Assembly: GCA_965222605.1 (NCBI GenBank)
Contig: OZ244960.1
Location: forward strand, 2,944,001-3,008,000
Reading direction: 5' to 3'
Source: Candidatus Latescibacterota bacterium
Lineage (GTDB): Bacteria > Latescibacterota > UBA2968
Length of the DNA stretch: 64,000 nucleotides
In this document: positions 1 through 11,270 of the stretch, piece by piece
How positions within the stretch are numbered: the first letter of the stretch is position 1
Layout: each line of letters opens with the position of its first letter
Position numbers and translations under genes: made by a program
Notes under the pieces: model-generated
Told to the model about the DNA's origin: nothing
What the model saw: the letters and a program-made list of their open reading frames with translations, nothing else
The model's database searches: none

Positions 1-537
1 GATGGTCAATTTTTACCTGACCAATTCGAGAAGTGGCTTAAGAGAACAAAAGAAGCGTGTAATGAATCCGGACATCTTGAGGTCACTCTTATGCATATAG
101 GCAAAGTTCTCATTCACGCGCCACCTGATCCAGAAGGGTTGTGGATACATCAAACAGTCGCATCTGCGCTCAATGCAACGGATGAAGAGGAAATGAGGAA
201 TAGTTTCCGATCCGGAATGTACAACTCTCGCGGAGTTCACACAGTTGACCCGACGGGAAAACCCGAACGAGAGCTTGCCGAGGAATACAAACAAAAAGCC
301 GAAGAAGTTGAAAATGAGGGCTATCACCGCTTTGCTGTTACACTCCGGAAATTAGCAGAAGGATATGAGCGAGAAGCGGAAACATATATTGCTAAGTATG
401 ACGAGAAAGTGAGAAGGCTTCAGAACCAAAAATTGATTGAACGCGAAAGTGCCCGACGGTTGGCAAATCGCGGAGGGAGCGAGCCACAACTACAAGCTGT
501 CCCGCGCCGTCGGAGTGATCCCACTTACCAAATTTAA
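1..537 (+). CDS. C-terminal part of a large uncharacterised protein (5' end outside window), probable defence-island protein
   Basis: Frame 1 is open from base 1 (DGQFLPDQFEKWL...) to TAA at 535-537. The NSRGVH..DPTGKPERELAEEY..KAE..ENEGYHRFA tail resembles large hypothetical proteins seen in RM/defence loci. Confidence 0.7.
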   Translation, partial: DGQFLPDQFEKWLKRTKEACNESGHLEVTLMHIGKVLIHAPPDPEGLWIHQTVASALNATDEEEMRNSFRSGMYNSRGVHTVDPTGKPERELAEEYKQKAEEVENEGYHRFAVTLRKLAEGYEREAETYIAKYDEKVRRLQNQKLIERESARRLANRGGSEPQLQAVPRRRSDPTYQI

Positions 538-650
538 GGGCAAACTATGGTCCGCACTATCTCTTGCCCTCGCTTGATGAACGCAGCTTTTCGGTCACGC
601 ACTGGTCAGCAGAATTTCCTTTTTTATTCTCTAAAAAATTAGTTCTTTAG

Positions 651-2357
651 CCCGAAAAATTCATAAAAAAGGTAGTTTCCCTATTCAAGTTATTGTATTA
701 TATTAGGTTATACGCATAACCATTGAACAATGAACTTGGGAGAAACTACCGTGAGCACACAAGATAATCATTGCAAGGTTCCTTTGGCAAGCATTTTCGG
801 CAAACGTCTCAACCTCGCCTTTGATGGGGGTATTCTCACCAGCGATAGCGGAGCCTTATTGCTTCGAGAAGTGGAGGCCAAAACGGGTATTTTATCACGT
901 TTGAGTCGCGCGATTAAAGACCATCGGCATCAAAGTTATGTGGCGCATAGCACGGCAGAGTTGATCAAACAGCGCGTGTTTCAAATTGCCTGTGGGTATG
1001 AAGATGCCAATGATTGCAATGCCTTACGCAGCGATCCCGGCTTCAAGGTTGCCTGTGATCGCTTGCCCATAAGTGGTGAGAACTTGGCCAGTCAACCCAC
1101 GATGAGTCGGTTTGAGAATCAGATGAGCAGAAGCGATTTGTATCGCGTTGCTCGTGCCTTTGTCGATTGTTTTATTGCTTCGTATAAAAAGCCGCCTTCG
1201 TCGATCATCTTAGATATTGATGATACGCAGGATAGGGTTTATGGGACGCAGCAGTTGTCCTTATTCAATGGGTATTTGGGTGCCTACTCCTACCAGCCTT
1301 TGCATATTTATGAAGGGCAATCGGGCAAGCTAATCACGACGATTTTACGTCCGGGTGTGCGTCCTGATGGCAAACAGATTGTCACCATTCTCAAGCGGTT
1401 AGTCGCTTATATTCGTCAGGCTTGGCCAAAGGTGGCACTCTTTTTGCGAGGCGATGCCCACTTCTCAAGTCCAGAAGTCCAGGACTTTTGTGCGACAAAG
1501 GACCTCTTTTTTATCCTCGGACAAAGTGCCAATACCCGACTCTTAGCCCTTTCAAAGCCCCTGATGGATCAGACCAAAAGCCTTTATGCACAAACCGGCA
1601 AGCCCGTGCGACTTTTTACCTCATTTTATTACCAAGCCCAGACTTGGGCCTGTGCCAGACGCATCTTATGCAAAGCTGAAATCACCACCCGAGGCCAAAA
1701 CACACGCTTTGTCGTGACCAACCTTGAAAGTTCAAGGGCCTCCTTTATCTACCAAAATATCTATTGTGCGCGCGGACAGATGGAAAACTTCATTAAAAAT
1801 CACAAAACCTTTCTCCACTCAGACCGCACGTCCTGTCACGCTTTTGGAGCCAATCAGTTCCGCCTCTTCCTCCATTCGGCTGCCTATGTCTTGTTGCACA
1901 CCTTAGCGCACATCGGATTACAAGGCACAACGTGGATAAACGCACAGGTCAATACCCTCCAAAATCGTTTCCTTAAAGTCGCCGGACGCGTCTGTGAGTT
2001 GAAAACAAAGATCACCTTCCATCTGCCTATGTCATTTCCATTGCCACACCTTTTTGATAAAATCCTGTGCAATCTGGCAAAGGCGGTGCCATAACCCATC
2101 AACGGGGAAGGAATAGGGGTCTGTCCCATCACTTGCTGACTTTACAAATACACGGACTTATCCACAGACAGGACTGGCAAGGGACCGGTCTGTACTTTTG
2201 ACACTGGCAGAGCCTGTCAGGGGACGATTTGGGCTGCTTGAACTCTATGAAGACGCCTATGACGGCAGACAAGATAGAAAGCACCCTCATTTTGATGCTT
2301 GGAACCGATGCCGCCTGACAAACAACCCCAACCATTACAGTTCATGAATTAGTCGGG
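651..2357 (+). mobile_element. IS1380-family insertion sequence
   Basis: Imperfect terminal IRs CCCGAAAAATTCATAA (651-666) and TCATGAATTAGTCGGG (2342-2357), 13/16 match. Flanked by a TTAG direct repeat (647-650, 2358-2361). Encloses one DDE transposase. Confidence 0.9.
730..2094 (+). CDS. IS1380-family DDE transposase
   Basis: Motifs FDGG.LTSDSG, CGYEDANDC, LASQPTMSRFEN, LDIDDT, LRGDAHF, YCARGQMENFIK, ANQFRL. Confidence 0.95.
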   Translation: MNLGETTVSTQDNHCKVPLASIFGKRLNLAFDGGILTSDSGALLLREVEAKTGILSRLSRAIKDHRHQSYVAHSTAELIKQRVFQIACGYEDANDCNALRSDPGFKVACDRLPISGENLASQPTMSRFENQMSRSDLYRVARAFVDCFIASYKKPPSSIILDIDDTQDRVYGTQQLSLFNGYLGAYSYQPLHIYEGQSGKLITTILRPGVRPDGKQIVTILKRLVAYIRQAWPKVALFLRGDAHFSSPEVQDFCATKDLFFILGQSANTRLLALSKPLMDQTKSLYAQTGKPVRLFTSFYYQAQTWACARRILCKAEITTRGQNTRFVVTNLESSRASFIYQNIYCARGQMENFIKNHKTFLHSDRTSCHAFGANQFRLFLHSAAYVLLHTLAHIGLQGTTWINAQVNTLQNRFLKVAGRVCELKTKITFHLPMSFPLPHLFDKILCNLAKAVP

Positions 2358-2565
2358 TTAGGTTCAGGAGCAATTTTTTGTCGCAATTAGAAAAAGACTT
2401 TCAGGGAGTTGCGCTTTTGCAGGTATATGACAGGATCGCTGATATATTTATGGAGCAGGTCATACCAGTTGATCTTCAAATTGAGAAACTCTATCAGTCA
2501 AATGAACAACTCATCCAGGCCCGTGACCTGCTCCTACCGCGTTTGATAAGTGGAGGGGTGGCGGT

Positions 2566-3327
2566 GTGAGCGTATCCTATCCAACTAAAATCCTCTTGGC
2601 CTACCGAAGTGGCGACAGATGTGCTTTGCCCGATTGTGGACGAAATTTGTCGCCAGAGAGTGAAAGCGGCGATCCTATCAACGTGGGAGAGGCTGCACAT
2701 ATCGCTGGTGAAAATCCTGGATCAGCTCGTTATGATGAAAATATGACCCCTGAAAATAGAAACCATTATAACAACCTCATCTATCTATGCGGAACCTGCC
2801 ACACCATCATTGACGCCATACCGCAAGGCGAGAACGACTACCCCGTAGAACGCCTCCACAAGATCAAGAATGAGCACGAGCAAAAGGTCCGTGATGCAAT
2901 AGCCGATGCATTCGTAGATGTTGGATTCCCAGAATTGGAAGAAGCCACTCTATGGATCATGCAAGTTAATCTACAACAGACTGACCCTGACAATGACTTT
3001 TCGGTAATTGCGCCCGAGGACAAAATAAATAAGAACGCATTAGAAAACAGCTCTCGAATGATCATCACAATGGGCCTCAGTGTTTCGCGTGAGGTTCGAG
3101 TGTTTATTGAAAGCGTGGCGCAGACGGATCAAGATTTTCCAGAACGCCTGAAGTTGGGATTTCTACAAGAGTACTATCGGCTGAGGCAAGATGGGCATTC
3201 GGGAGACGTTCTTTTCGATTTAATGTGTAGATTTGCACAGCGAGGCTTCACGGAGCAAGCTAAGCGGTCCGCCGGATTAGCGGTACTGGTTTACCTGTTT
3301 GAGACCTGCGAGGTATTCGAGAAATGA
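2566..3327 (+). CDS. lmuA: Lamassu/ABC-3C effector: HNH endonuclease with ABC-3C C-terminal domain
   Basis: SGDRCALPDC...GEAAHI...RYD...NNLIYLCGTCHTIID (Zn-HNH). C-terminus LVYLFETCEVFEK is typical of ABC-3C CTDs. Overlaps the next gene (ATGA). Confidence 0.85.
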   Translation: MSVSYPTKILLAYRSGDRCALPDCGRNLSPESESGDPINVGEAAHIAGENPGSARYDENMTPENRNHYNNLIYLCGTCHTIIDAIPQGENDYPVERLHKIKNEHEQKVRDAIADAFVDVGFPELEEATLWIMQVNLQQTDPDNDFSVIAPEDKINKNALENSSRMIITMGLSVSREVRVFIESVAQTDQDFPERLKLGFLQEYYRLRQDGHSGDVLFDLMCRFAQRGFTEQAKRSAGLAVLVYLFETCEVFEK

Positions 3328-3551
3328 TCCTTCCATCAAAGCATATTTCCCAAGACCAAGCTCTAATCGGTATTGGTGCCATCCTGCTCAAAGAGATTGA
3401 CCAGCCACAGACGGTGACCAGCCTGTGGGAGACTGTCCGCGAGGAAGACGCCATAGGCACTTTCGAACGGTTTGTGCTGGCACTTGACATGCTTCACATC
3501 ATCGGTGCTACAAATCTGGAAAACGGTCTGATTGTGAGGATGAAGCAATGA
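3324..3551 (+). CDS. lmuC: Lamassu/ABC-3C middle component
   Basis: 75 aa, MILPSKHI....ALIGIGA.LL...TVTSLW....FERFVLALDML..IG; translationally coupled to both neighbours. Confidence 0.85.
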   Translation: MILPSKHISQDQALIGIGAILLKEIDQPQTVTSLWETVREEDAIGTFERFVLALDMLHIIGATNLENGLIVRMKQ

Positions 3552-5308
3552 TTCATCGAATTACGGCCAACAAATCTTCATTTCATCCAGTGGAATTTAC
3601 ACCGGGACTGAATGTCGTTTTAGCAGACCGCACGGAAACATCCACCCAAAAAGACACGCGAAACGGTCTGGGTAAATCTACTCTAATTGACATCATTGAC
3701 TTTTGTCTGGGTTCCAACGTTAGCACGGGGCAGGGCCTCTCTATAGAGCCATTACAAGATTGGGAATTTACATTGGAAATTACGCTTGCGGGCAACCACG
3801 TGAAAGTAACTCGTGCTATTAAAAGTCCGAACTGGCTGAATATAGAAGGCTCGACGCTTGGCTGGGTTGAACAACCTGATAGTGTCGATCTCTTTGGAGG
3901 AAGTAGATTCAAATTAGACCGCTGGAAGGCACTCTTGGGGCGGGCTTTATTTGGCTTACACCCGAGCGATGACACCAAGCACAAGCCTTCTTTCCGTAGT
4001 CTGGTTGCATATTTCATAAGACGCGGTGCCGACGCTTACCTTGACCCATTCAGTCATACCCGTCATCAACTGACATGGGACAAGCAACTTCACATCGCGT
4101 TTCTACTTGGCATGAATTGGGAGAATGCGTCTAAATGGCAAGCACTGAAAGGCCAGGAAAAAGGTATTAAAACAATTAATGACGCGATTGAGTCCGGTGC
4201 TATGGAAGGCGCAAGGGGTTCAGTTGGCGAGTTAGAGGCGGAATGCGTTCAATTGGAAAGTCAACTACAACGTGAATCAGATGCCTTAGAAGGATTCAAA
4301 GTACACCCGCAGTACGAAACCATTCAGAACGATGCCGATAGGATCACCGAAACCATTCACAATTTGACCAACCAGAACATTGTCGATCAAAGAAGATTGT
4401 CGCGATACAAAGAGTCAGTCGAAGCAGAGACACCGCCTTCTAACACAGCCATTGACAATATCTACGAAGAAACCGGTGTGACTTTTCCCAACTCAGTTCG
4501 TCGTACGCTTACCGAAGCCAAAGAGTTTCATTCGAAAATTATCGAGAACAGACGAGCCTTTCTCGAAACGGAAATCAGACGCATAGAACGTAAAATCAGA
4601 CTTCAAAATGAAGAAATCAGACGACAAACTGATGAGAGGGCTGACTTGCTTAGCATCCTTGAAACACACGGAGCACTGCAAGAACTGGCTAAACTCCAAG
4701 AACGCATCATTGAAATACGCGGCAATCTAAAACAGAAACGTATCCGGCTCGAAGAAATAAAGGATAGAATCTCGAGGAAACGCAACATAAATATAGCGAA
4801 AGTGGAACTGACTAAGATTGCTGAGCAAGATCATGAAGAACGCAGAGATATTTGGAGCGTTCCACTGCGTCTCTTCAACGACAATTCTCAGGCACTTTAC
4901 GAGACGCCTGGACACCTGGTGATTAATATTGATGAAACAGGGTTCAAGTACAATGTCGAGATAAACAAGAGTGGTAGCGAGGGCATAGAGAAGATGAAAA
5001 TTTTCTGCTTCGATTTGATGCTATTACAAATCATGTCAAAGCAGAATAACAGACTCAATTTCTTGATTCATGACAGTATCCTCTATGACGGTGTTGACTC
5101 CAGGCAACGAGCACTTGCGCTTGAGCAGGCGAGCAAGGTATCAAGAGCAAATAATGCACAGTACATTTGCACCCTAAATTCCGATATGGTTCCGCGAGAG
5201 GACTTCAGCGAGGACTTTAACTTCGATGAGCATGTTCGGCTGACTCTCACCGACGAGGCCCCCTCTAAAAGTCTGTTGGGTTTTTATTTTGATCGACCAC
5301 CCAAATGA
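3548..5308 (+). CDS. lmuB: Lamassu SMC-like ABC ATPase (DUF2326 type)
   Basis: Walker A RNGLGKST, long central coiled coil, signature SGSEG, Walker B/D-loop FLIHDS.LYDGVDSRQ, QYICTLN. Confidence 0.9.
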   Translation: MIHRITANKSSFHPVEFTPGLNVVLADRTETSTQKDTRNGLGKSTLIDIIDFCLGSNVSTGQGLSIEPLQDWEFTLEITLAGNHVKVTRAIKSPNWLNIEGSTLGWVEQPDSVDLFGGSRFKLDRWKALLGRALFGLHPSDDTKHKPSFRSLVAYFIRRGADAYLDPFSHTRHQLTWDKQLHIAFLLGMNWENASKWQALKGQEKGIKTINDAIESGAMEGARGSVGELEAECVQLESQLQRESDALEGFKVHPQYETIQNDADRITETIHNLTNQNIVDQRRLSRYKESVEAETPPSNTAIDNIYEETGVTFPNSVRRTLTEAKEFHSKIIENRRAFLETEIRRIERKIRLQNEEIRRQTDERADLLSILETHGALQELAKLQERIIEIRGNLKQKRIRLEEIKDRISRKRNINIAKVELTKIAEQDHEERRDIWSVPLRLFNDNSQALYETPGHLVINIDETGFKYNVEINKSGSEGIEKMKIFCFDLMLLQIMSKQNNRLNFLIHDSILYDGVDSRQRALALEQASKVSRANNAQYICTLNSDMVPREDFSEDFNFDEHVRLTLTDEAPSKSLLGFYFDRPPK

Positions 5309-6087
5309 CACAGAAGATACAAAAGACTTTATTCCTTGCATGGCAGTACAAAACAAGGGAGGACCGACCCTGGTTTCCATTGGGCAGACTGGACATTGAA
5401 CCGTCGCTTTATCGCTTCCGCTATACGGGCGGGGCTGTGCGAGCACAGCAAGAGTTGAATTATCCTCCCATCTTGAGCTTTCCTCAACTGCATAGAGATT
5501 ACCGATCCTCAGTACTATTTTACCTGTTCCAGAATCGGGTTATGAAGCCGAACAGACCGGACTTCGCCGATCATGTTCAGCGACTCGGTCTGCCTGAAAG
5601 TGCCGATGATTTCCATATGCTATCGGTAAGCGGTGGCTATCGAGTAACCGACGATTACGAGGTCTTTCCAAAACTGGTCAAAGCCGACGATGGAAGTTTT
5701 GTCTGTCGGTTTTTCCTGCACGGATGGCGATACACAAGCCTCCCCGCGCAAGAACGGCTGAATGCTCTAAAGCCAAGAGAAGAACTTTATATAGCACTGG
5801 AACTTGCCAATCCAGTGACTGGTCTGGCCGTGCAACTCCAGACAATGGACTACCACATGATTGGCTGGACCCCGCGTTATATCGTTTCCGAGATGGCGAG
5901 GGCAATGGCCGAATCGCCCGGTGGAGAGGTGTACAACTGCGGCAGCAGTTCGTACGCGGCACATGTGGTGCGGGTCAATCCCGTACCGTCTCCGATGACA
6001 CAGCGTGTTTTGATTGAGATGCGCGGTCGCTGGGACGGGTATGAACCGATGGAGAGCGAGGATTTCCAACCTCTAATTGGTGATTGA
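5305..6087 (+). CDS. HipA N-terminal-like plus HIRAN domain protein
   Basis: LFLAWQ...WFPLGRL...YRFRY...LF..FQNRVM...RPDF followed by a HIRAN-like FFLHGWRY...LELANP...AVQL...IGW.PRY. Start overlaps the lmuB stop. Confidence 0.7.
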   Translation: MTQKIQKTLFLAWQYKTREDRPWFPLGRLDIEPSLYRFRYTGGAVRAQQELNYPPILSFPQLHRDYRSSVLFYLFQNRVMKPNRPDFADHVQRLGLPESADDFHMLSVSGGYRVTDDYEVFPKLVKADDGSFVCRFFLHGWRYTSLPAQERLNALKPREELYIALELANPVTGLAVQLQTMDYHMIGWTPRYIVSEMARAMAESPGGEVYNCGSSSYAAHVVRVNPVPSPMTQRVLIEMRGRWDGYEPMESEDFQPLIGD

Positions 6088-6112
6088 CCGTTTATTACAA
6101 GTATTGATTTTA

Positions 6113-6174
6113 CTGGATCGCGGCTAAAACCATGCCGCGATGACACACGGGACGGCACGGGGACCGTCCCCTAC
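6113..6174. repeat. Paired palindromic intergenic repeats (CTGGA..TGAC type plus GTAG-type REP)
   Basis: CTGGATCGCGGC-N9-GCCGCGATGAC at 6113-6144 and the reverse of GTAGGGGACGGTCCCCGTGCCGTCCC at 6149-6174; both recur elsewhere in the window. Confidence 0.8.
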
Positions 6175-6195
6175 AACACCTATAGACTGCGACTG

Positions 6196-6290
6196 ATCGC
6201 ACAAGTTACCGCATAAGTCACCGCACAAGTTGGGGACCAGGTCGGGATCAAAGCCAGAGTCACAGCCAGAGTCACAGCCAGAGTCACAGC
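6196..6290 (+). repeat. 12-bp tandem repeats (xAQV/GDQV and PESQ-coding units)
   Basis: ATCGCACAAGTT ACCGCATAAGTC ACCGCACAAGTT GGGGACCAGGTC, then (AGCCAGAGTCAC)x3. Confidence 0.8.
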
Positions 6291-6312
6291 ACAGATTGGT
6301 AGCGCTACCAGA

Positions 6313-9300
6313 ATGAATTCAACCCCCTACACCGAAGACACCCTCGTTCAACAGACCACAGCCGAGTTCCTCGAACAACAACTCGGCTGGGAATCCGTCT
6401 ATGCCTACAACAGCGAGGACTTCGGACCAGATAGCCTGCTCGGTCGCACCTCTGACCGCGAAGTAGTGCTCACGCGCTATCTACTCACCGCGCTACGAAC
6501 TCTGAACCCCGGCCTGCCCGAAGACGCCTACAACGACGCGATCCGGCAAATTACATCCACCACCGCTTCGCAAAGCATCGTCGCCACCAACCGCGAAAAG
6601 TACGACCTCATCCGCGACGGCGTACCTGTCACATTCCACAACGCCAATGGTAAGCGAGAGAGGAAACACCTCCGAGTCTTTGATTTTAAAACACCTGAAA
6701 ACAACCACTTCCTCTGCGTGCGCGAATTGCGAATAAAGGGCGACCTCTACCGCAAACGGGCAGACATCATCGGCTTCGTCAACGGCCTGCCCCTCCTCTT
6801 CATCGAATGCAAAAACATCCACCGAGACCTCAAAGCCGCCTACAACGACAACTACTCGGACTATCGCTATACCATCCCCCACATCTTCCACCACAACGCC
6901 ATCGTCATGTTTGGCAACGGCGAAAAAGCAAAACTCGGCTCCATCACCAGCGAGTGGGATCACTTCCACGAATGGAAACGCCTATCCGAAGAAGAACCCG
7001 GCGTCGTCGATATGGAAACCCTCCTCAAGGGCGTCTGCAACAAACGCGACTTCATGGACATCATAGAAAACTTCATCCTCTTCGATGACACATCGGGCGA
7101 AACAAAGAAAATCCTCGCACGCAACCACCAGTTCCTCGGCGTAAACCGCGCAATTGAAGCCGTGCGCGACCACAAAGCACGCCAGGGCAAACTGGGCGTC
7201 TTCTGGCACACACAGGGCGCCGGTAAAAGCTACTCAATGGTACTCTTCACCCGCAAAGTACACCGCAAACTCGGCGGCAACTTCACCTTCCTCATCCTGA
7301 CCGACCGCACGGACCTGGACACGCAAATCTACAAAACCTTCGCCGGTTGCGGCGTCGTAGATCACGACCGAGACCCCTGCCGCCCAGCAGACGGGCCACA
7401 CCTGAACCAGCTATTGACCGAACACAAATCGCACATCTTCTCCCTCATCCAGAAATTCAACCAGGACATAGACACCAACAAAGGCTACACCCAGCGCGAC
7501 GACATCATCGTCATCACCGACGAAGCGCACCGCACACAATACGGCGAGTTAGCAGCCAACATGCGCGCCGCCCTGCCCAACGCAGCCTACATGGGCTTCA
7601 CCGGCACACCGCTATTCAAAGACGACGAAATCACGCGCCGCGTCTTCGGCGAATACGTCTCCACCTACGACTTCCAGCGGGCAGTAGAAGACAATGCCAC
7701 GCTACCCCTCTACTACGACGCGCGCGGCGACAAACTCGGCGTAGCTGTCGATAATTTGAACGAACGCATCGCCGAAAAATTGGAAGAATCCGAAATTAGC
7801 GACATCAACGAAGAACAACTCCTCGAGCGAGAACTCAAACGCGCCTACCACATTATCACCGCGGGCAAACGCCTCGACCAACTGGCGCGGGACTTCACGC
7901 GACACTACTCGGCCGCATGGGAAACCGGCAAAGCCATGCTGGTCTGCATTGACAAAATAACCTGCGTGCGAATGCACAGATTGATTGAGTTCTACTGGCA
8001 GGAACACATCGGGAAACTGGAAACCAGGCTATCGCAGACAACGGACGAAGAGGAAAGAACAGACCTGCAGCGGAAGATCAACTGGATGTGCGAGACCCGC
8101 GTAGCAGTGGTAATCAGCGAAGAACAGGGCGAAATCGAAAAATTCAACAAATGGGACCTGGACATCATCCCGCACCGCAAACTCATCAAAGAAGGCATAG
8201 ACTTGCCAGAAACCATGAGAGACAAACCGCAGTACCGCAACATGCAACGCATGGAACTGGACGAAGCCTTCAAAGCCGAGGAACACCCATTCCGCATCGC
8301 CATCGTCTGCGCCATGTGGCTAACGGGTTTCGATGTCCCGTGCCTTTCAACACTCTACCTCGACAAACCACTCAGAGCACACACCCTGATGCAGGCCATT
8401 GCCCGCGCCAACCGCGTGAAAGAAAACAAAAACAACGGCCTGATCGTAGATTACTGCGGCGTCCTCGTACACCTGCGCCAGGCACTCGCGACCTTCGCCG
8501 GCACGCGACCAGACGGAGATAGCGAAAACATCGACCCCGCAAGACCCGACGAAGAACTGCTGGCCGACCTCGCCGAAGCCATCGCCCTGGTGCGGAATTT
8601 CCTCAATAAGCGCAACACACCACTGGACGACATCACCAAAAAAACGAGCTTCCAGCGCAACGCAGCTATCATAGCCTGCAAAGAAGCCGCCAACGAAAAC
8701 GACGAAACCCGCAAACGCTTCGAGGTCATGTGCCGCGAAGTATTCAAAAAATTCAAAGCATGCGTCAACGTGAAAAACATCAACACGTATCGCGAAGACC
8801 GCAACGCCATTGACATCGTGTACAAAAGCCTCCAGCAAGACCGCAACCAGGCCGACATCTCAGAAATCATAAGGGAATTACAGCGGGTAGTAGATGCGGC
8901 CATTGAGCCGACAGCCAGTAATGTGGCTGAAAACCCGCATCCTGATGAAGATCGGCGTCCTTACGACATCAGCCAGATAGACTTCGACCATCTGAAGCGA
9001 GAATTCGCGCGCGTCAAAGAAAAAAACACCACCGTTCAGAACCTCAGACAAGCTGTAGAACAAAAATTGCAACGCCTCCTGAAGCAAAATCCATTACGCA
9101 CGGACTTTCAGCACTACTACGAAGAAATCGTCGCAGCGTACAACCGCGAAAAGGACCAGATAACAATAGAGCGAACCTTTGAGGCATTGCTCAAACTGGT
9201 GCAGGAATTGGATGAAGAAGAAAACCGAGCAATTCGTGAAGGACTTGACGAAGAATCCCTCGCAATCTTCGATCTGTTAAAAAAACCCAACCTGAGCGCG

Positions 9301-9567
9301 AGCGAAATCGCACAAATCAAGAAGATAGCGAAAGATCTGCTAAAAAAACTGAAAGTTAGTAAACTGGGTGTCCACCAATGGCGCGAAAAAGAAGCGACCC
9401 GGGACGCCGTGTGGTCTTCCATTAATGACTTTCTCTACAACGACCAAACCGGCCTGCCTGAAAGATACACACTTGAGGACATAGAAACAAAAACCGAAGC
9501 CGTCTTCCACCACATCTTCCGGGCCTACCCCAAATTGCCATCGCCATATTACGAAAGTGCGGCTTGA
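6313..9567 (+). CDS. hsdR: Type I restriction endonuclease subunit R
   Basis: Nuclease RADIIGFVNGLPLLFIECK, Walker A WHTQGAGKS, DEAHRTQYG, FTGTP, MWLTGFDVP, MQAIARANR; 1084 aa. Confidence 0.97.
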   Translation: MNSTPYTEDTLVQQTTAEFLEQQLGWESVYAYNSEDFGPDSLLGRTSDREVVLTRYLLTALRTLNPGLPEDAYNDAIRQITSTTASQSIVATNREKYDLIRDGVPVTFHNANGKRERKHLRVFDFKTPENNHFLCVRELRIKGDLYRKRADIIGFVNGLPLLFIECKNIHRDLKAAYNDNYSDYRYTIPHIFHHNAIVMFGNGEKAKLGSITSEWDHFHEWKRLSEEEPGVVDMETLLKGVCNKRDFMDIIENFILFDDTSGETKKILARNHQFLGVNRAIEAVRDHKARQGKLGVFWHTQGAGKSYSMVLFTRKVHRKLGGNFTFLILTDRTDLDTQIYKTFAGCGVVDHDRDPCRPADGPHLNQLLTEHKSHIFSLIQKFNQDIDTNKGYTQRDDIIVITDEAHRTQYGELAANMRAALPNAAYMGFTGTPLFKDDEITRRVFGEYVSTYDFQRAVEDNATLPLYYDARGDKLGVAVDNLNERIAEKLEESEISDINEEQLLERELKRAYHIITAGKRLDQLARDFTRHYSAAWETGKAMLVCIDKITCVRMHRLIEFYWQEHIGKLETRLSQTTDEEERTDLQRKINWMCETRVAVVISEEQGEIEKFNKWDLDIIPHRKLIKEGIDLPETMRDKPQYRNMQRMELDEAFKAEEHPFRIAIVCAMWLTGFDVPCLSTLYLDKPLRAHTLMQAIARANRVKENKNNGLIVDYCGVLVHLRQALATFAGTRPDGDSENIDPARPDEELLADLAEAIALVRNFLNKRNTPLDDITKKTSFQRNAAIIACKEAANENDETRKRFEVMCREVFKKFKACVNVKNINTYREDRNAIDIVYKSLQQDRNQADISEIIRELQRVVDAAIEPTASNVAENPHPDEDRRPYDISQIDFDHLKREFARVKEKNTTVQNLRQAVEQKLQRLLKQNPLRTDFQHYYEEIVAAYNREKDQITIERTFEALLKLVQELDEEENRAIREGLDEESLAIFDLLKKPNLSASEIAQIKKIAKDLLKKLKVSKLGVHQWREKEATRDAVWSSINDFLYNDQTGLPERYTLEDIETKTEAVFHHIFRAYPKLPSPYYESAA

Positions 9568-9644
9568 AGTCTGCCCATATAGATATGCAGGGGTAGCGCG
9601 ATTTCGCATGATTCGCTACATTTGTCCATAAAGAGGCAACAACC

Positions 9645-9881
9645 ATGAAATTGATTGAGAAAGAAATCGTCATCGCCGAAGACGGCAAACTTCCTACAGA
9701 CTTTCGCGAAGCATTTGGTCGAAAGGCGCGTGTTGCCGTTTACCTGCAGGAAGAGGAACAAGAAAAAACAAAAGGTGCAGATATTCTGTCAGATCTGGAT
9801 GGTAAGATTCGGGCGTTTCGAGACATTGATGACCCGGTGGCATTTCAACGAAATCTTCGGGCTGAATGGGAACCGAGTTGA
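9645..9881 (+). CDS. Small putative antitoxin (orphan; no toxin follows)
   Basis: 78 aa; EDGKLP..F...ARVAV...DPVAFQRNLRAEW resembles antitoxins that precede PIN toxins; RBS AGAGG. Confidence 0.55.
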   Translation: MKLIEKEIVIAEDGKLPTDFREAFGRKARVAVYLQEEEQEKTKGADILSDLDGKIRAFRDIDDPVAFQRNLRAEWEPS

Positions 9882-9909
9882 GAGAAATGAACACTGAAAA
9901 TTAGAGCTT

Positions 9910-9945
9910 GCCGACCAAGTAACCGACCAAGTAACCGACCAGGTA
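9910..9945 (+). repeat. 3x 12-bp tandem repeat (TDQV-coding)
   Basis: GCCGACCAAGTA ACCGACCAAGTA ACCGACCAGGTA. Confidence 0.85.
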
Positions 9946-9971
9946 GCACCCACCTTTCACACAACTCACCC

Positions 9972-11270
9972 ATGCCCAAAACTTCCAACCGAAAAACCAT
10001 TATCTCGTGGATGATGTATGACTTTGCAAACTCGTCTTTTGCCAACAACGTCACCACATTTATCTACGCGGCGTTTTTCACCAAAGTCATCGCTGAAAAT
10101 GAAATTGTGGGCACGACCTTATGGTCTCGCGGCGTCGGCATCATTATGCTCATCGTCGCACTGTTATCGCCACCCCTCGGCGCGTTGGCGGACCAGGGCG
10201 GATATCGCAAACGCTTTTTAATGTTTGCAACACTCCTCGCGGTCATCTTCACCGCACTGCTCTATTTCCCGCAACAAGGGCAAGTCACCTTTGCAATAGC
10301 CATATACATTATCGCCTGCATCTGCTTTGAAATGGGCACGGTATTTTACAATGCCTTCCTGCCCGACATTGCCCCACCCGAGCGCATCGGTCGCATATCG
10401 GGACAAGCATGGGGCGTGGGTTATTTTGGGGGCCTGCTCTCAATGGCCGTCCTCATGGTCGGTTTTATATCCGCAGAAACCCCGTGGTTTGGCCTATCCA
10501 AAGAAACCCACGAACACATCCGGGCGACAAATATCGGCGTTGCAATCTGGTTTGCGATCTTCAGCCTCCCTGCCTTCTTCTATTTACCCGAACCGCCTGC
10601 GCGACAAACCGGCGGCAAACCAGGCCTAATCGCATCCTACCGACGCATCCTGCAAACCTTCCGCGAACTCCAGCGCTACCGCGAAATCTTCAAACTACTG
10701 CTCGCACGCCTCGTCTATAACGACGGCCTGGTCACGGTCTTTGCTTTTGGCGGTATTTATGCGTCAGGCACATTTGGATTCACATTTGAAGAAGTCCTGT
10801 TCTTTGGCATCATCGTCAACATCGCAGCCGGCATCGGCGCATGGTGTTTTGGCTACCTGGACGACCGCCTGGGCGGCAAACTCACCATCCAAATCACCCT
10901 CATCGGATTCGTCATCGCAGCTACCATTGCCGTCGTACCTCAGGAAAAAATCTGGTTCTGGATCGCGGGCATTCTCGTCGGCCTATTTGCCGGACCGAAC
11001 CAATCGGCCAGCCGCTCACTCATGGGGCGTTTTGTCCCCCAAAACAAAGAAACCGAATTTTACGGCTTCTACGCCTTCTCGGGAAAAGCCACCGCATTTC
11101 TCGGTCCCCTCCTCATGGGCGTCCTCACACAAGCCTTCCAATCTCAGCGCATCGGCATGGCAACCGTGGGCCTGTTCTTCATAGTGGGCGGCCTCCTCTT
11201 GCGCACCGTTGACGAACAAAAGGGCATCCGCATGGGGCGTGAAAAAACGCCATCGGAGACAGACCCCTAA
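9972..11270 (+). CDS. MFS transporter, UMF1/ATG22-like family
   Basis: SWMMYDFANSSF, P.LGALAD, FYNAFLPDI, GPNQSASRSL, EFYGFYAFSGK; about 12 TM segments. Confidence 0.9.
   Translation: MPKTSNRKTIISWMMYDFANSSFANNVTTFIYAAFFTKVIAENEIVGTTLWSRGVGIIMLIVALLSPPLGALADQGGYRKRFLMFATLLAVIFTALLYFPQQGQVTFAIAIYIIACICFEMGTVFYNAFLPDIAPPERIGRISGQAWGVGYFGGLLSMAVLMVGFISAETPWFGLSKETHEHIRATNIGVAIWFAIFSLPAFFYLPEPPARQTGGKPGLIASYRRILQTFRELQRYREIFKLLLARLVYNDGLVTVFAFGGIYASGTFGFTFEEVLFFGIIVNIAAGIGAWCFGYLDDRLGGKLTIQITLIGFVIAATIAVVPQEKIWFWIAGILVGLFAGPNQSASRSLMGRFVPQNKETEFYGFYAFSGKATAFLGPLLMGVLTQAFQSQRIGMATVGLFFIVGGLLLRTVDEQKGIRMGREKTPSETDP

Follow-up and report, generated by a model that had tools for sequence, protein, structure and literature searches.

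A Lamassu-type cassette that probably took the place of the HipI kinase gene and left its putative antitoxin gene, hipN, in a type I restriction-modification locus

We analysed a stretch of 64,000 nucleotides from a Candidatus Latescibacterota bacterium (contig OZ244960.1, positions 2,944,001 to 3,008,000, assembly GCA_965222605.1), called the window below, in which four genes joined by overlapping stop and start codons lie inside a type I restriction-modification (RM) locus. The first three are predicted to encode a short Lamassu-type defence cassette and the fourth HipN, the putative antitoxin of a kinase module, hipIN, whose kinase gene has probably been replaced by the cassette. The locus is a composite of two known modules and probably not a new four-gene system. 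All sizeable open reading frames (ORFs) across 2378-9567 are on the plus strand. Positions are those of the window and L-numbers denote related loci; the four genes and their surroundings are as follows.

2566-3327, plus strand: gene 1, lmuA-like, with a GTG start
3324-3551, plus strand: gene 2, lmuC-like
3548-5308, plus strand: gene 3, lmuB-like
5305-6087, plus strand: gene 4, hipN
1-537, plus strand: 3' end of a Schlafen/AlbA_2-domain gene of ~1080 aa, sharing 68-81% identity with the ends of ORFs of 1062-1107 aa in L001, L003, L008, L009 and L026
651-2357, plus strand: IS1380-family insertion sequence (IS) element, with its transposase at 730-2094 (NF033539 1.2e-112; Pfam DDE_Tnp_1_4 4.3e-150)
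2378-2569, plus strand: 63-codon 3' remnant of hsdS, matched by the ends of PADLOC Specificity_I profiles alone (e.g. 378-435 of 446, 5e-8)
6198-6295, no strand: 12-nt tandem repeats between hipN and hsdR, in two short arrays (Tandem Repeats Finder: 6198-6231, 2.8 copies; 6248-6295, 3.9 copies, 94% matches)
6313-9567, plus strand: intact hsdR, the type I restriction subunit gene and conserved right flank of the cargo slot described below (TIGR00348 5.1e-145; PADLOC REase_I 1.1e-158; five Pfam HsdR domains)

Every junction is a 4-bp overlap of start and stop codons (GTGA at 2566-2569; ATGA at 3324-3327, 3548-3551 and 5305-5308), and the four ORFs are taken to be real genes because all of them have family matches (PDC-M68A, MC6, PDC-M68B and PDC-M03B). 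Scanning positions 500-6400 for promoters and terminators gave counts at chance level (7 vs 6.8 and 6 vs 6.5), from which no operon boundaries could be derived. The product of gene 1 matched the PADLOC model PDC-M68A across residues 1-252 (2.8e-91). Its N-terminus (residues 3-111) was recognised by PADLOC HNH effector models (up to 5e-23) and, slightly below the cut-off, by Pfam HNH_2 (6.1e-4, 20 bits vs 21), and its C-terminus (residues 137-252) by Pfam CTD10, the ABC-3C C-terminal domain 10 (1.5e-6, 29.3 bits vs a cut-off of 28.1). These matches predict an lmuA-like effector composed of an N-terminal HNH nuclease and a C-terminal CTD10 docking domain. Gene 2 sits between the effector and ATPase genes and overlaps each by 4 bp; its 75-aa product matched Pfam MC6, the ABC-3C middle component 6 (residues 3-73, 2.1e-15), and is 91% identical to its counterpart in L001. 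The 586-aa product of gene 3 was matched by PDC-M68B (1.2e-211), Pfam DUF2326 (3.2e-39) and PADLOC LmuB (3.4e-16), and a P-loop (GLGKST) and a Walker B motif (FLIHDS) were found in it by eye. The idea that the last lmuB codons derive from hipI was ruled out, as the C-terminus fits the LmuB family consensus.

Short Lamassu systems are described as having an LmuB of ~600 aa with a Walker B motif of the form hhhhD[Q/S/T/E], and HNH effectors as specific to this type (Haudiquet et al. 2025, PNAS, PMC12663957). Genes 1-3 resemble them in the order effector, middle component, ~600-aa ATPase, in the pairing of an HNH and a docking domain and in the FLIHDS Walker B motif; by sequence, the ~600-aa LmuB with Walker A and B motifs, the small middle component and the two-domain LmuA that mark the short type are all there. 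They differ in that the PADLOC LmuB match is weak and the genes are filed as the candidate system PDC-M68, and also in the hsdS remnant in front and the overlap with hipN behind. ABC-3C systems were placed inside the Lamassu superfamily in a 2023 review (PMC10586767). Genes 1-3 are thus predicted to be a short HNH-effector Lamassu/ABC-3C cassette, PADLOC candidate PDC-M68.

Gene 4 encodes a protein that matched PADLOC PDC-M03B (4.2e-68). Over residues 133-203 it also matched Pfam HIRAN below the cut-off (1.4e-3), and the PF08797 annotation is present in many of its homologues. An AlphaFold2 model built on an alignment of 103 sequences was confident and two-domained (predicted local distance difference test, pLDDT, 94.0; predicted template modelling score 0.91), a shallower alignment having given an unusable model (pLDDT 50.9). 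A Foldseek search of the PDB with this model returned two kinds of targets of ~100 residues, all with probability 1.00 and with template modelling scores normalised to the target (target TM) of about 0.6-0.76. The first kind were HIRAN domains (3k2y, E 5e-4, target TM 0.72-0.76, and the HLTF HIRAN structures 4s0n, 4xzg, 6kcs and 5bnh) and the second were HipS antitoxins complexed with kinases (7vkb_B, 8ezr_A and 7ab3_E, target TM 0.70-0.71). A sequence profile search of the PDB gave 3k2y at 1.4e-3 and HLTF HIRAN at 0.07; the same search with the shallow alignment found nothing.

This architecture has a name. Gerdes, Baerentsen and Brodersen (2021, mBio, PMC8262856) describe HipN as a putative antitoxin in which a HipS-like domain is combined with a HIRAN one, its gene lying downstream of that for the HipI kinase within a bicistronic hipIN module, and propose that it neutralises the kinase and binds DNA ends. 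Judging from the position of the Pfam HIRAN match and from their description, the HipS-like domain of gene 4 would be the N-terminal one. Sequence matches and the structural model together assign gene 4 to HipN, the putative antitoxin of hipIN, already described in 2021. The gene agrees with hipIN (PADLOC candidate PDC-M03) in domain architecture, in its PDC-M03B match and in the kinase that lies upstream in most relatives (see below), and departs from it in that the kinase gene is gone from the window locus, the N-terminus is chimeric and translation is probably coupled to lmuB. The adjacent A and B genes of PDC-M03 are not found here, lmuB lying upstream instead of the kinase, and none of the window ORFs matched PDC-M03A (kinase), PDC-M03B alone being present. 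HipBST (PDB 7ab3, 8ezr) offers a more distant likeness: one domain of gene 4 shares the HipS fold (target TM ~0.70, probability 1.00), but in HipBST HipS is a stand-alone protein of ~100 aa encoded upstream of the kinase (HipT) together with HipB, whereas in the window it is fused to HIRAN with neither kinase nor HipB. No experimental test of PDC-M68 or of hipIN/HipN was found in the literature searched.

An earlier reading made from the sequence alone had called an HNH-effector Lamassu followed by a HipA-N/HIRAN gene, in four same-strand ORFs with 4-bp stop/start overlaps. The coordinates and the GTGA/ATGA junctions bear out the layout, the PDC-M68A/B, MC6, LmuB and CTD10 matches the identity of genes 1-3, and PDC-M03B with the AlphaFold2/Foldseek matches that of gene 4. 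The overlap of lmuA with an hsdS stop codon is also real, but what it overlaps is a 63-codon 3' remnant and not a whole hsdS; likewise, the type I RM setting is upheld by the intact hsdR downstream, but the ORF at 1-537 is the C-terminus of an AlbA_2 protein and not an RM subunit.

The hipN family is large. Clustering at 90% identity gave 1188 clusters with E<=1e-3 among 1610 candidates, and clustering at 50% identity 1643 such clusters, 351 of them at E<=1e-30. Three longer forms, each a single-member cluster (P0411, P0412 and P0413), carry respectively a HipA_C kinase in front (HipL-like), a C-terminal NucS_C endonuclease domain and TPR repeats; one of the three is thus a HipA kinase fusion and none contains a Lamassu part. 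HipN matches were found on plasmids in 7 records.

A scan of one genome per species returned 249 relatives of hipN, the best 80 of which were taken with 8-kb flanks. The nearest relatives of the window are all metagenome-assembled genomes (MAGs) of Latescibacterota. Among the 80 loci, hipN is immediately preceded by a HipA-like kinase gene in 66 and by none in 12, the remaining 2 being cut by a contig end. The order is kinase then HipN, as in hipIN; the kinase usually has ~296 aa and overlaps hipN by exactly 4 bp in 34 of the 66 kinase-linked loci. All nine kinase ORFs that were checked (7 of typical length and 2 long) matched both PADLOC PDC-M03A (to 3.9e-89) and Pfam HipA_C. The kinase is one ORF of >=270 aa in 49 of the 66 loci, and in the other 17 only shorter ORFs are present. 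In these 17 (e.g. L017, L019, L022, L037, L041, L063 and L072) a split or shortened hipI stands beside a whole hipN, which could reflect erosion of the toxin or frameshift errors in long-read MAGs. The twelve loci without a kinase carry the following upstream of hipN.

L001: a Lamassu-like cassette
L005: Hachiman-like PDC-M23A/B
L029: an AAA ATPase gene after an hsdR
L036: genes on the opposite strand
L045: a PIN gene
L052 (7231-7995): a SoFic-like Fic gene, with a 4-bp overlap
L056: MgsA
L064 (7364-7990): an NYN gene, with a 1-bp gap
L065: a type III restriction enzyme
L074 (7182-7964): a Fic-like C-terminal/HATPase_c_4 protein, at a very short distance
L078: NYN/HEC-09, on the other strand
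L079: a small ORF

Among the 80 loci, counterparts of LmuA, MC6 and LmuB were found in L001 alone, which is the locus closest to the window. On a tree of 81 HipN sequences, explaining the 13 kinase-less rows (the 12 loci and the window) takes 12 changes, and well-supported branches force 11 of these; the count of 12 is approximate because hipN is a mosaic, as described below. The window and L001 are sisters on this tree (SH-aLRT, the Shimodaira-Hasegawa-like approximate likelihood ratio test, 93) and represent one event.

The cassette was then followed from the side of its ATPase. LmuB homologues formed 951 clusters at E<=1e-20 among 7999 candidates scored, and tblastn found LmuB in 67 plasmid records, with an MC6 gene annotated alongside in each. 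Four of the 67 records were inspected, and in all four the cassette is an effector-MC6-ATPase triplet in an unrelated context with differing neighbours; in none of the four does a HIRAN gene accompany it. These plasmid triplets lacking a HIRAN gene suggest that the three-gene cassette is autonomous. Recurrent linkage of a HipS-HIRAN gene to lmuACB in independent lineages was not seen, the association occurring in 1 of the 80 hipN loci and 0 of the 4 plasmid cassettes.

The closest relatives share the general order hsdS, variable cargo, hipI, hipN, hsdR. The cargo is an AlbA_2 gene in L003, L008, L009 and L026, a 1488-aa protein without a PADLOC match in L002 (2618-7084), a 1484-aa ORF in L010 (2632-7086), an OLD/AriA/GajA-like ATPase with a 415-aa partner in L004 (3612-6762) and a pair equivalent by position in L006 (3681-6801). 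The boundaries of the exchange were placed by blastn of window positions 1-10000 against the relatives. Positions 1-522 resemble the end of the AlbA_2 gene and 518-582 the stretch directly upstream of hipI in L026; homology to kinase-linked loci stops after 582 and resumes at ~5317-5405, inside the start of hipN. The block made of 583-649 and 2359-5308, with the hsdS remnant, lmuA, lmuC and lmuB, is common to L001 only (88%), the L001 match as a whole covering 583-649 and 2359-6090. L005 shares with the window 583-649, 2359-2547 and 5322-9626 (91%), and carries PDC-M23A/B between them.

In L005, PDC-M23A/B (a HamB-like helicase, Hachiman-like) occupies the same slot at 3505-7992, with the same hsdS remnant on its left. 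The cassette is followed by a 5' fragment of hsdR of ~95 nt, inside the 181-bp gap before hipN, which on its sequence appears to be the footprint of a transfer from another type I locus. The place of hipI can be regarded as a slot, with an hsdS 3' remnant to its left and hipN-hsdR to its right, because different cassettes occupy the interval. Three occupants of this slot are found in close relatives: hipI, the Lamassu-type cassette and the Hachiman-like cassette. As far as their sequences tell, the slot cassettes were apparently each lifted from another type I locus.

The junction between lmuB and hipN bears marks of the exchange. GC content is 45.1% in lmuB (45.8 at third codon positions), 51.7% in hipN (54.0) and 53.4% in hsdR (67.3), and the step at the lmuB/hipN junction indicates separate origins. 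The hipN start is chimeric, reading MTQKIQKTLF instead of ~MSTKTLF, in the window, in L001 and in the homologues P0005, P0006, P0011 and P0015. No Shine-Dalgarno sequence precedes hipN in the window or in L001, where canonical loci have GGAG(G); as hipN has none of its own, its translation is probably coupled to lmuB. The first 7 nt of hipN, ATGACAC, were considered as a trace of a donor hsdR start such as that in L005, but so short a match carries no evidential weight.

The orphan hipN itself is well preserved. The reading frame is unbroken, and of the positions that are invariant (3) or nearly invariant (24) in the 103-sequence alignment none has been lost. Between the window and L001, the ratio of nonsynonymous to synonymous substitution rates (dN/dS) is 0.18 for hipN at dS 0.295 (0.22 for the HipS-like and 0.15 for the HIRAN domain), compared with 0.26 for lmuB, 0.21 for hsdR and 0.12-0.28 for most kinase-linked hipN pairs. 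The intact ORF, the kept positions and these ratios suggest that hipN is not decaying. At the same time the gene is mosaic and draws on at least three allele lineages, with nt 1-90 closest to L001/L005, nt 136-300 to L001-L004 and nt 586-675 to L006. Identity switches sharply near nt 90-135, nt 300 and nt 585-675, and at the last of these an 11-codon insert is shared with L006. This pattern suggests that recombination at the border of the cargo slot uses hipN as its handle. Among the close homologues, P0015 has a scrambled internal stretch, and the ORFs of P0005, P0006 and P0011 are intact.

We favour, as a fairly likely account, that a Lamassu cassette replaced hipI in the cargo slot of the type I RM locus and stranded HipN, which would still be functional but not a part of Lamassu. 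In the window and in L001 the hsdS remnant and the lmuACB block sit exactly where hipI would be, and the lmuB stop now overlaps the slightly chimeric hipN start; HipN translation is probably coupled to lmuB. The Lamassu cassette would act alone: by analogy with short Lamassu, an LmuB dimer and LmuC may keep LmuA inactive until DNA ends or replication intermediates are sensed, upon which the LmuA HNH nuclease would be released and activated and lead to abortive infection. Lamassu is reported to sense dsDNA ends, LmuA then forming tetramers with active nuclease (Haudiquet et al. 2025, PMC12663957). HipN, for its part, would most likely persist as an orphan antitoxin and DNA-end binder directed against HipI-type kinases encoded elsewhere in the genome or on mobile DNA. 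In one genome an orphan hipN (L029) coexists with a complete hipIN (L053), which makes neutralisation in trans conceivable. The later insertion of the IS1380 element upstream may supply or block transcription of the lmuACB-hipN operon.

Several points weigh against this account. No HipI kinase was found in the 64-kb window by tblastn (best E 3.8). The survey covers the best 80 of the 249 relatives, and beyond these 80 loci a further lmuB-hipN junction is seen in P0291 (a partial LmuB) and P0006 (a HipN), which have consecutive NCBI accessions and lie on one 5284-bp contig; another probable one involves P0275 and P0394, both on a contig of 15624 bp. The four-gene arrangement has been kept between the window and L001 across a dS of about 0.25-0.3, and the coupling and retention of hipN would fit a co-opted function too. 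The tight toxin-like neighbours upstream of hipN elsewhere (Fic in L052, NYN in L064) could mean that partners were swapped and not only lost. Finally, the mosaic nature of hipN weakens the dN/dS argument, and its conservation may partly stem from kinase-linked loci.

The last point bears on the possibility that hipN is a functionless, decaying remnant refreshed by recombination with kinase-linked alleles, which we regard as unlikely. The clear mosaic structure of hipN and the internal scrambling of P0015 would agree with such a history, as would the kinase-less rows, which are mostly single short tips on the tree (13 rows, 12 changes), and the fragmentary kinase ORFs in 17 of 66 loci, which imply that the module erodes often. 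It is opposed by the intact ORFs that carry the MTQK N-terminus in the window, L001, P0005, P0006 and P0011, by the retention of all conserved family positions and by dN/dS values of ~0.15-0.22 in both domains.

A lower probability still attaches to the idea that HipN was co-opted as a fourth Lamassu component, which would detect 3'-OH DNA ends through its HIRAN domain and modulate either sensing by LmuB or the release of LmuA. In its favour, DNA ends are what Lamassu itself senses, hipN overlaps lmuB by 4 bp and has no ribosome-binding site of its own, the window and L001 have kept the arrangement at dS ~0.3 with a hipN dN/dS of 0.18, and the lmuB-hipN junction recurs on one or two more contigs. 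Against this, the arrangement is seen in only 1 of 80 related loci and amounts, for the window and L001, to a single tree event; 4 of 4 plasmid cassettes lack a HIRAN gene and 0 of 3 fused HipN forms have a Lamassu part; the same hipN 5' variant stands behind a Hachiman-like cassette in L005, across a 181-bp gap with an hsdR fragment; and the jump in GC content between lmuB and hipN is a mark of distinct origins. We give equally little credence to the broader proposal that HipS-HIRAN is a portable DNA-end-sensing regulator, re-partnered into functional pairs with lmuB (window, L001), Fic (L052) and NYN (L064); if it were true, the firing or toxicity of Lamassu would be gated by a former antitoxin. 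It is highly improbable that HipN works with the type I enzyme, by binding HsdR-made ends or regulating hsdR: although 19 of 80 loci have an hsdR of the window type starting <600 bp 3' of hipN and 3 others have one farther downstream, and hipN-hsdR is kept in the window, L001 and L005 despite differing upstream cassettes, 56 of 80 loci have no hsdR of this family within 8 kb, the kinase is present in most RM-embedded loci, which makes hipIN the embedded unit, and an IS110 element lies between hipN and hsdR in L001.

The sequence-only reading had suggested that the fourth gene might be an undescribed accessory or regulator of Lamassu, or might link HsdR-made breaks to Lamassu activation. Neither suggestion is supported (a kinase upstream in 66 of 80 loci, Lamassu in 1 of 80, 4 of 4 inspected plasmid cassettes without HIRAN, HipN known since 2021). 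It had expected that, were it wrong, hipN homologues would almost always adjoin a HipA-like kinase and never Lamassu: the kinase does adjoin in 66 of the 80 loci, but 'never' is too strong, given L001 and one or two metagenomic contigs. Its more mundane alternative, an unrelated cargo gene, comes closer, although hipN would be the stranded partner of another module and not random cargo.

The replacement account has value as a correction, in that what looked like a fourth Lamassu gene would encode the known antitoxin HipN and have stayed behind after the kinase gene had been replaced. The account further makes the locus a clean natural example of the exchange of embedded defence cargo in a type I RM locus, between two conserved sequences, and one that unites two candidate systems, PDC-M68 and hipIN. 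Repeated independent loss of the kinase with hipN kept (~12 events, 81 sequences) raises the question of what an orphan HipS-HIRAN protein does. 'Guilt by embedding' in type I RM, BREX and DISARM loci has been put forward as a way to candidates (Payne et al. 2024 preprint, 10.1101/2024.01.29.577857), and both cassettes here similarly lie between hsdS and hsdR sequences, in a slot with cargo as variable as an AlbA_2 protein, an OLD/AriA-like pair, PDC-M23, PDC-M68 and hipIN. What that preprint gives is a candidate list, in which we found no description of a cassette replacing the toxin of another embedded module.

The left flank of the locus records further events. No hsdM or full hsdS is present in the window, which begins inside the locus; in relatives the full hsdS lies upstream of the AlbA_2 gene. 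The remnant at 2378-2569 corresponds to the final ~58 positions of specificity-subunit profiles, and its TGA overlaps the GTG of gene 1. It is found with the same truncation in L001 (86% aa identity) and L005 (72%). The IS1380 element ends in imperfect terminal inverted repeats of ~17 nt flanked by a TTAG duplication (647-650 and 2358-2361), and lies ~20 bp upstream of the remnant ORF in the orientation of the cassette. Its site is empty in L001 and L005. As both of these loci have the truncated remnant without the IS, the element was ruled out as the cause of the hsdS truncation and is a later arrival.

The ORF at 1-537 is, on its sequence, neither an RM subunit nor a member of the cassette, and appears to belong to a recurrent cargo of the RM locus. 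The ~1080-aa AlbA_2 cargo was observed in the same RM locus, placed between hsdS and hipIN, at L008:3377-6628, L003:3577-6810, L009:3606-6812 and L026:3298-6621, and at L001:1-3189. The L008 protein matched Pfam SLFN_AlbA_2 (3.7e-15) and had no PADLOC match; for want of such a match it may be an undescribed RM-embedded defence candidate.

On the right flank, hsdR is 87-93% identical across L001-L010, and the genes 3' of it in the window are housekeeping ones, coding for an MFS transporter, sulfatases, ribonucleotide reductase and a class II tRNA synthetase. A megablast search of window positions 1-6400 against E. coli genomes gave no match. The repeat units of the hipN-hsdR spacer are CGCACAAGTTAC and TCACAGCCAGAG, and similar repeats lie 3' of hsdR in L005. 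In L001 it is an IS110-family transposase gene, at 8890-10158, that separates hipN from hsdR. In the same locus the AlbA_2 gene and the hsdS remnant are separated, at 3186-4974, by a 129-aa ORF and a RES-domain gene; a 129-aa ORF, alike by length and place, occurs at the matching position in L008 and L026.

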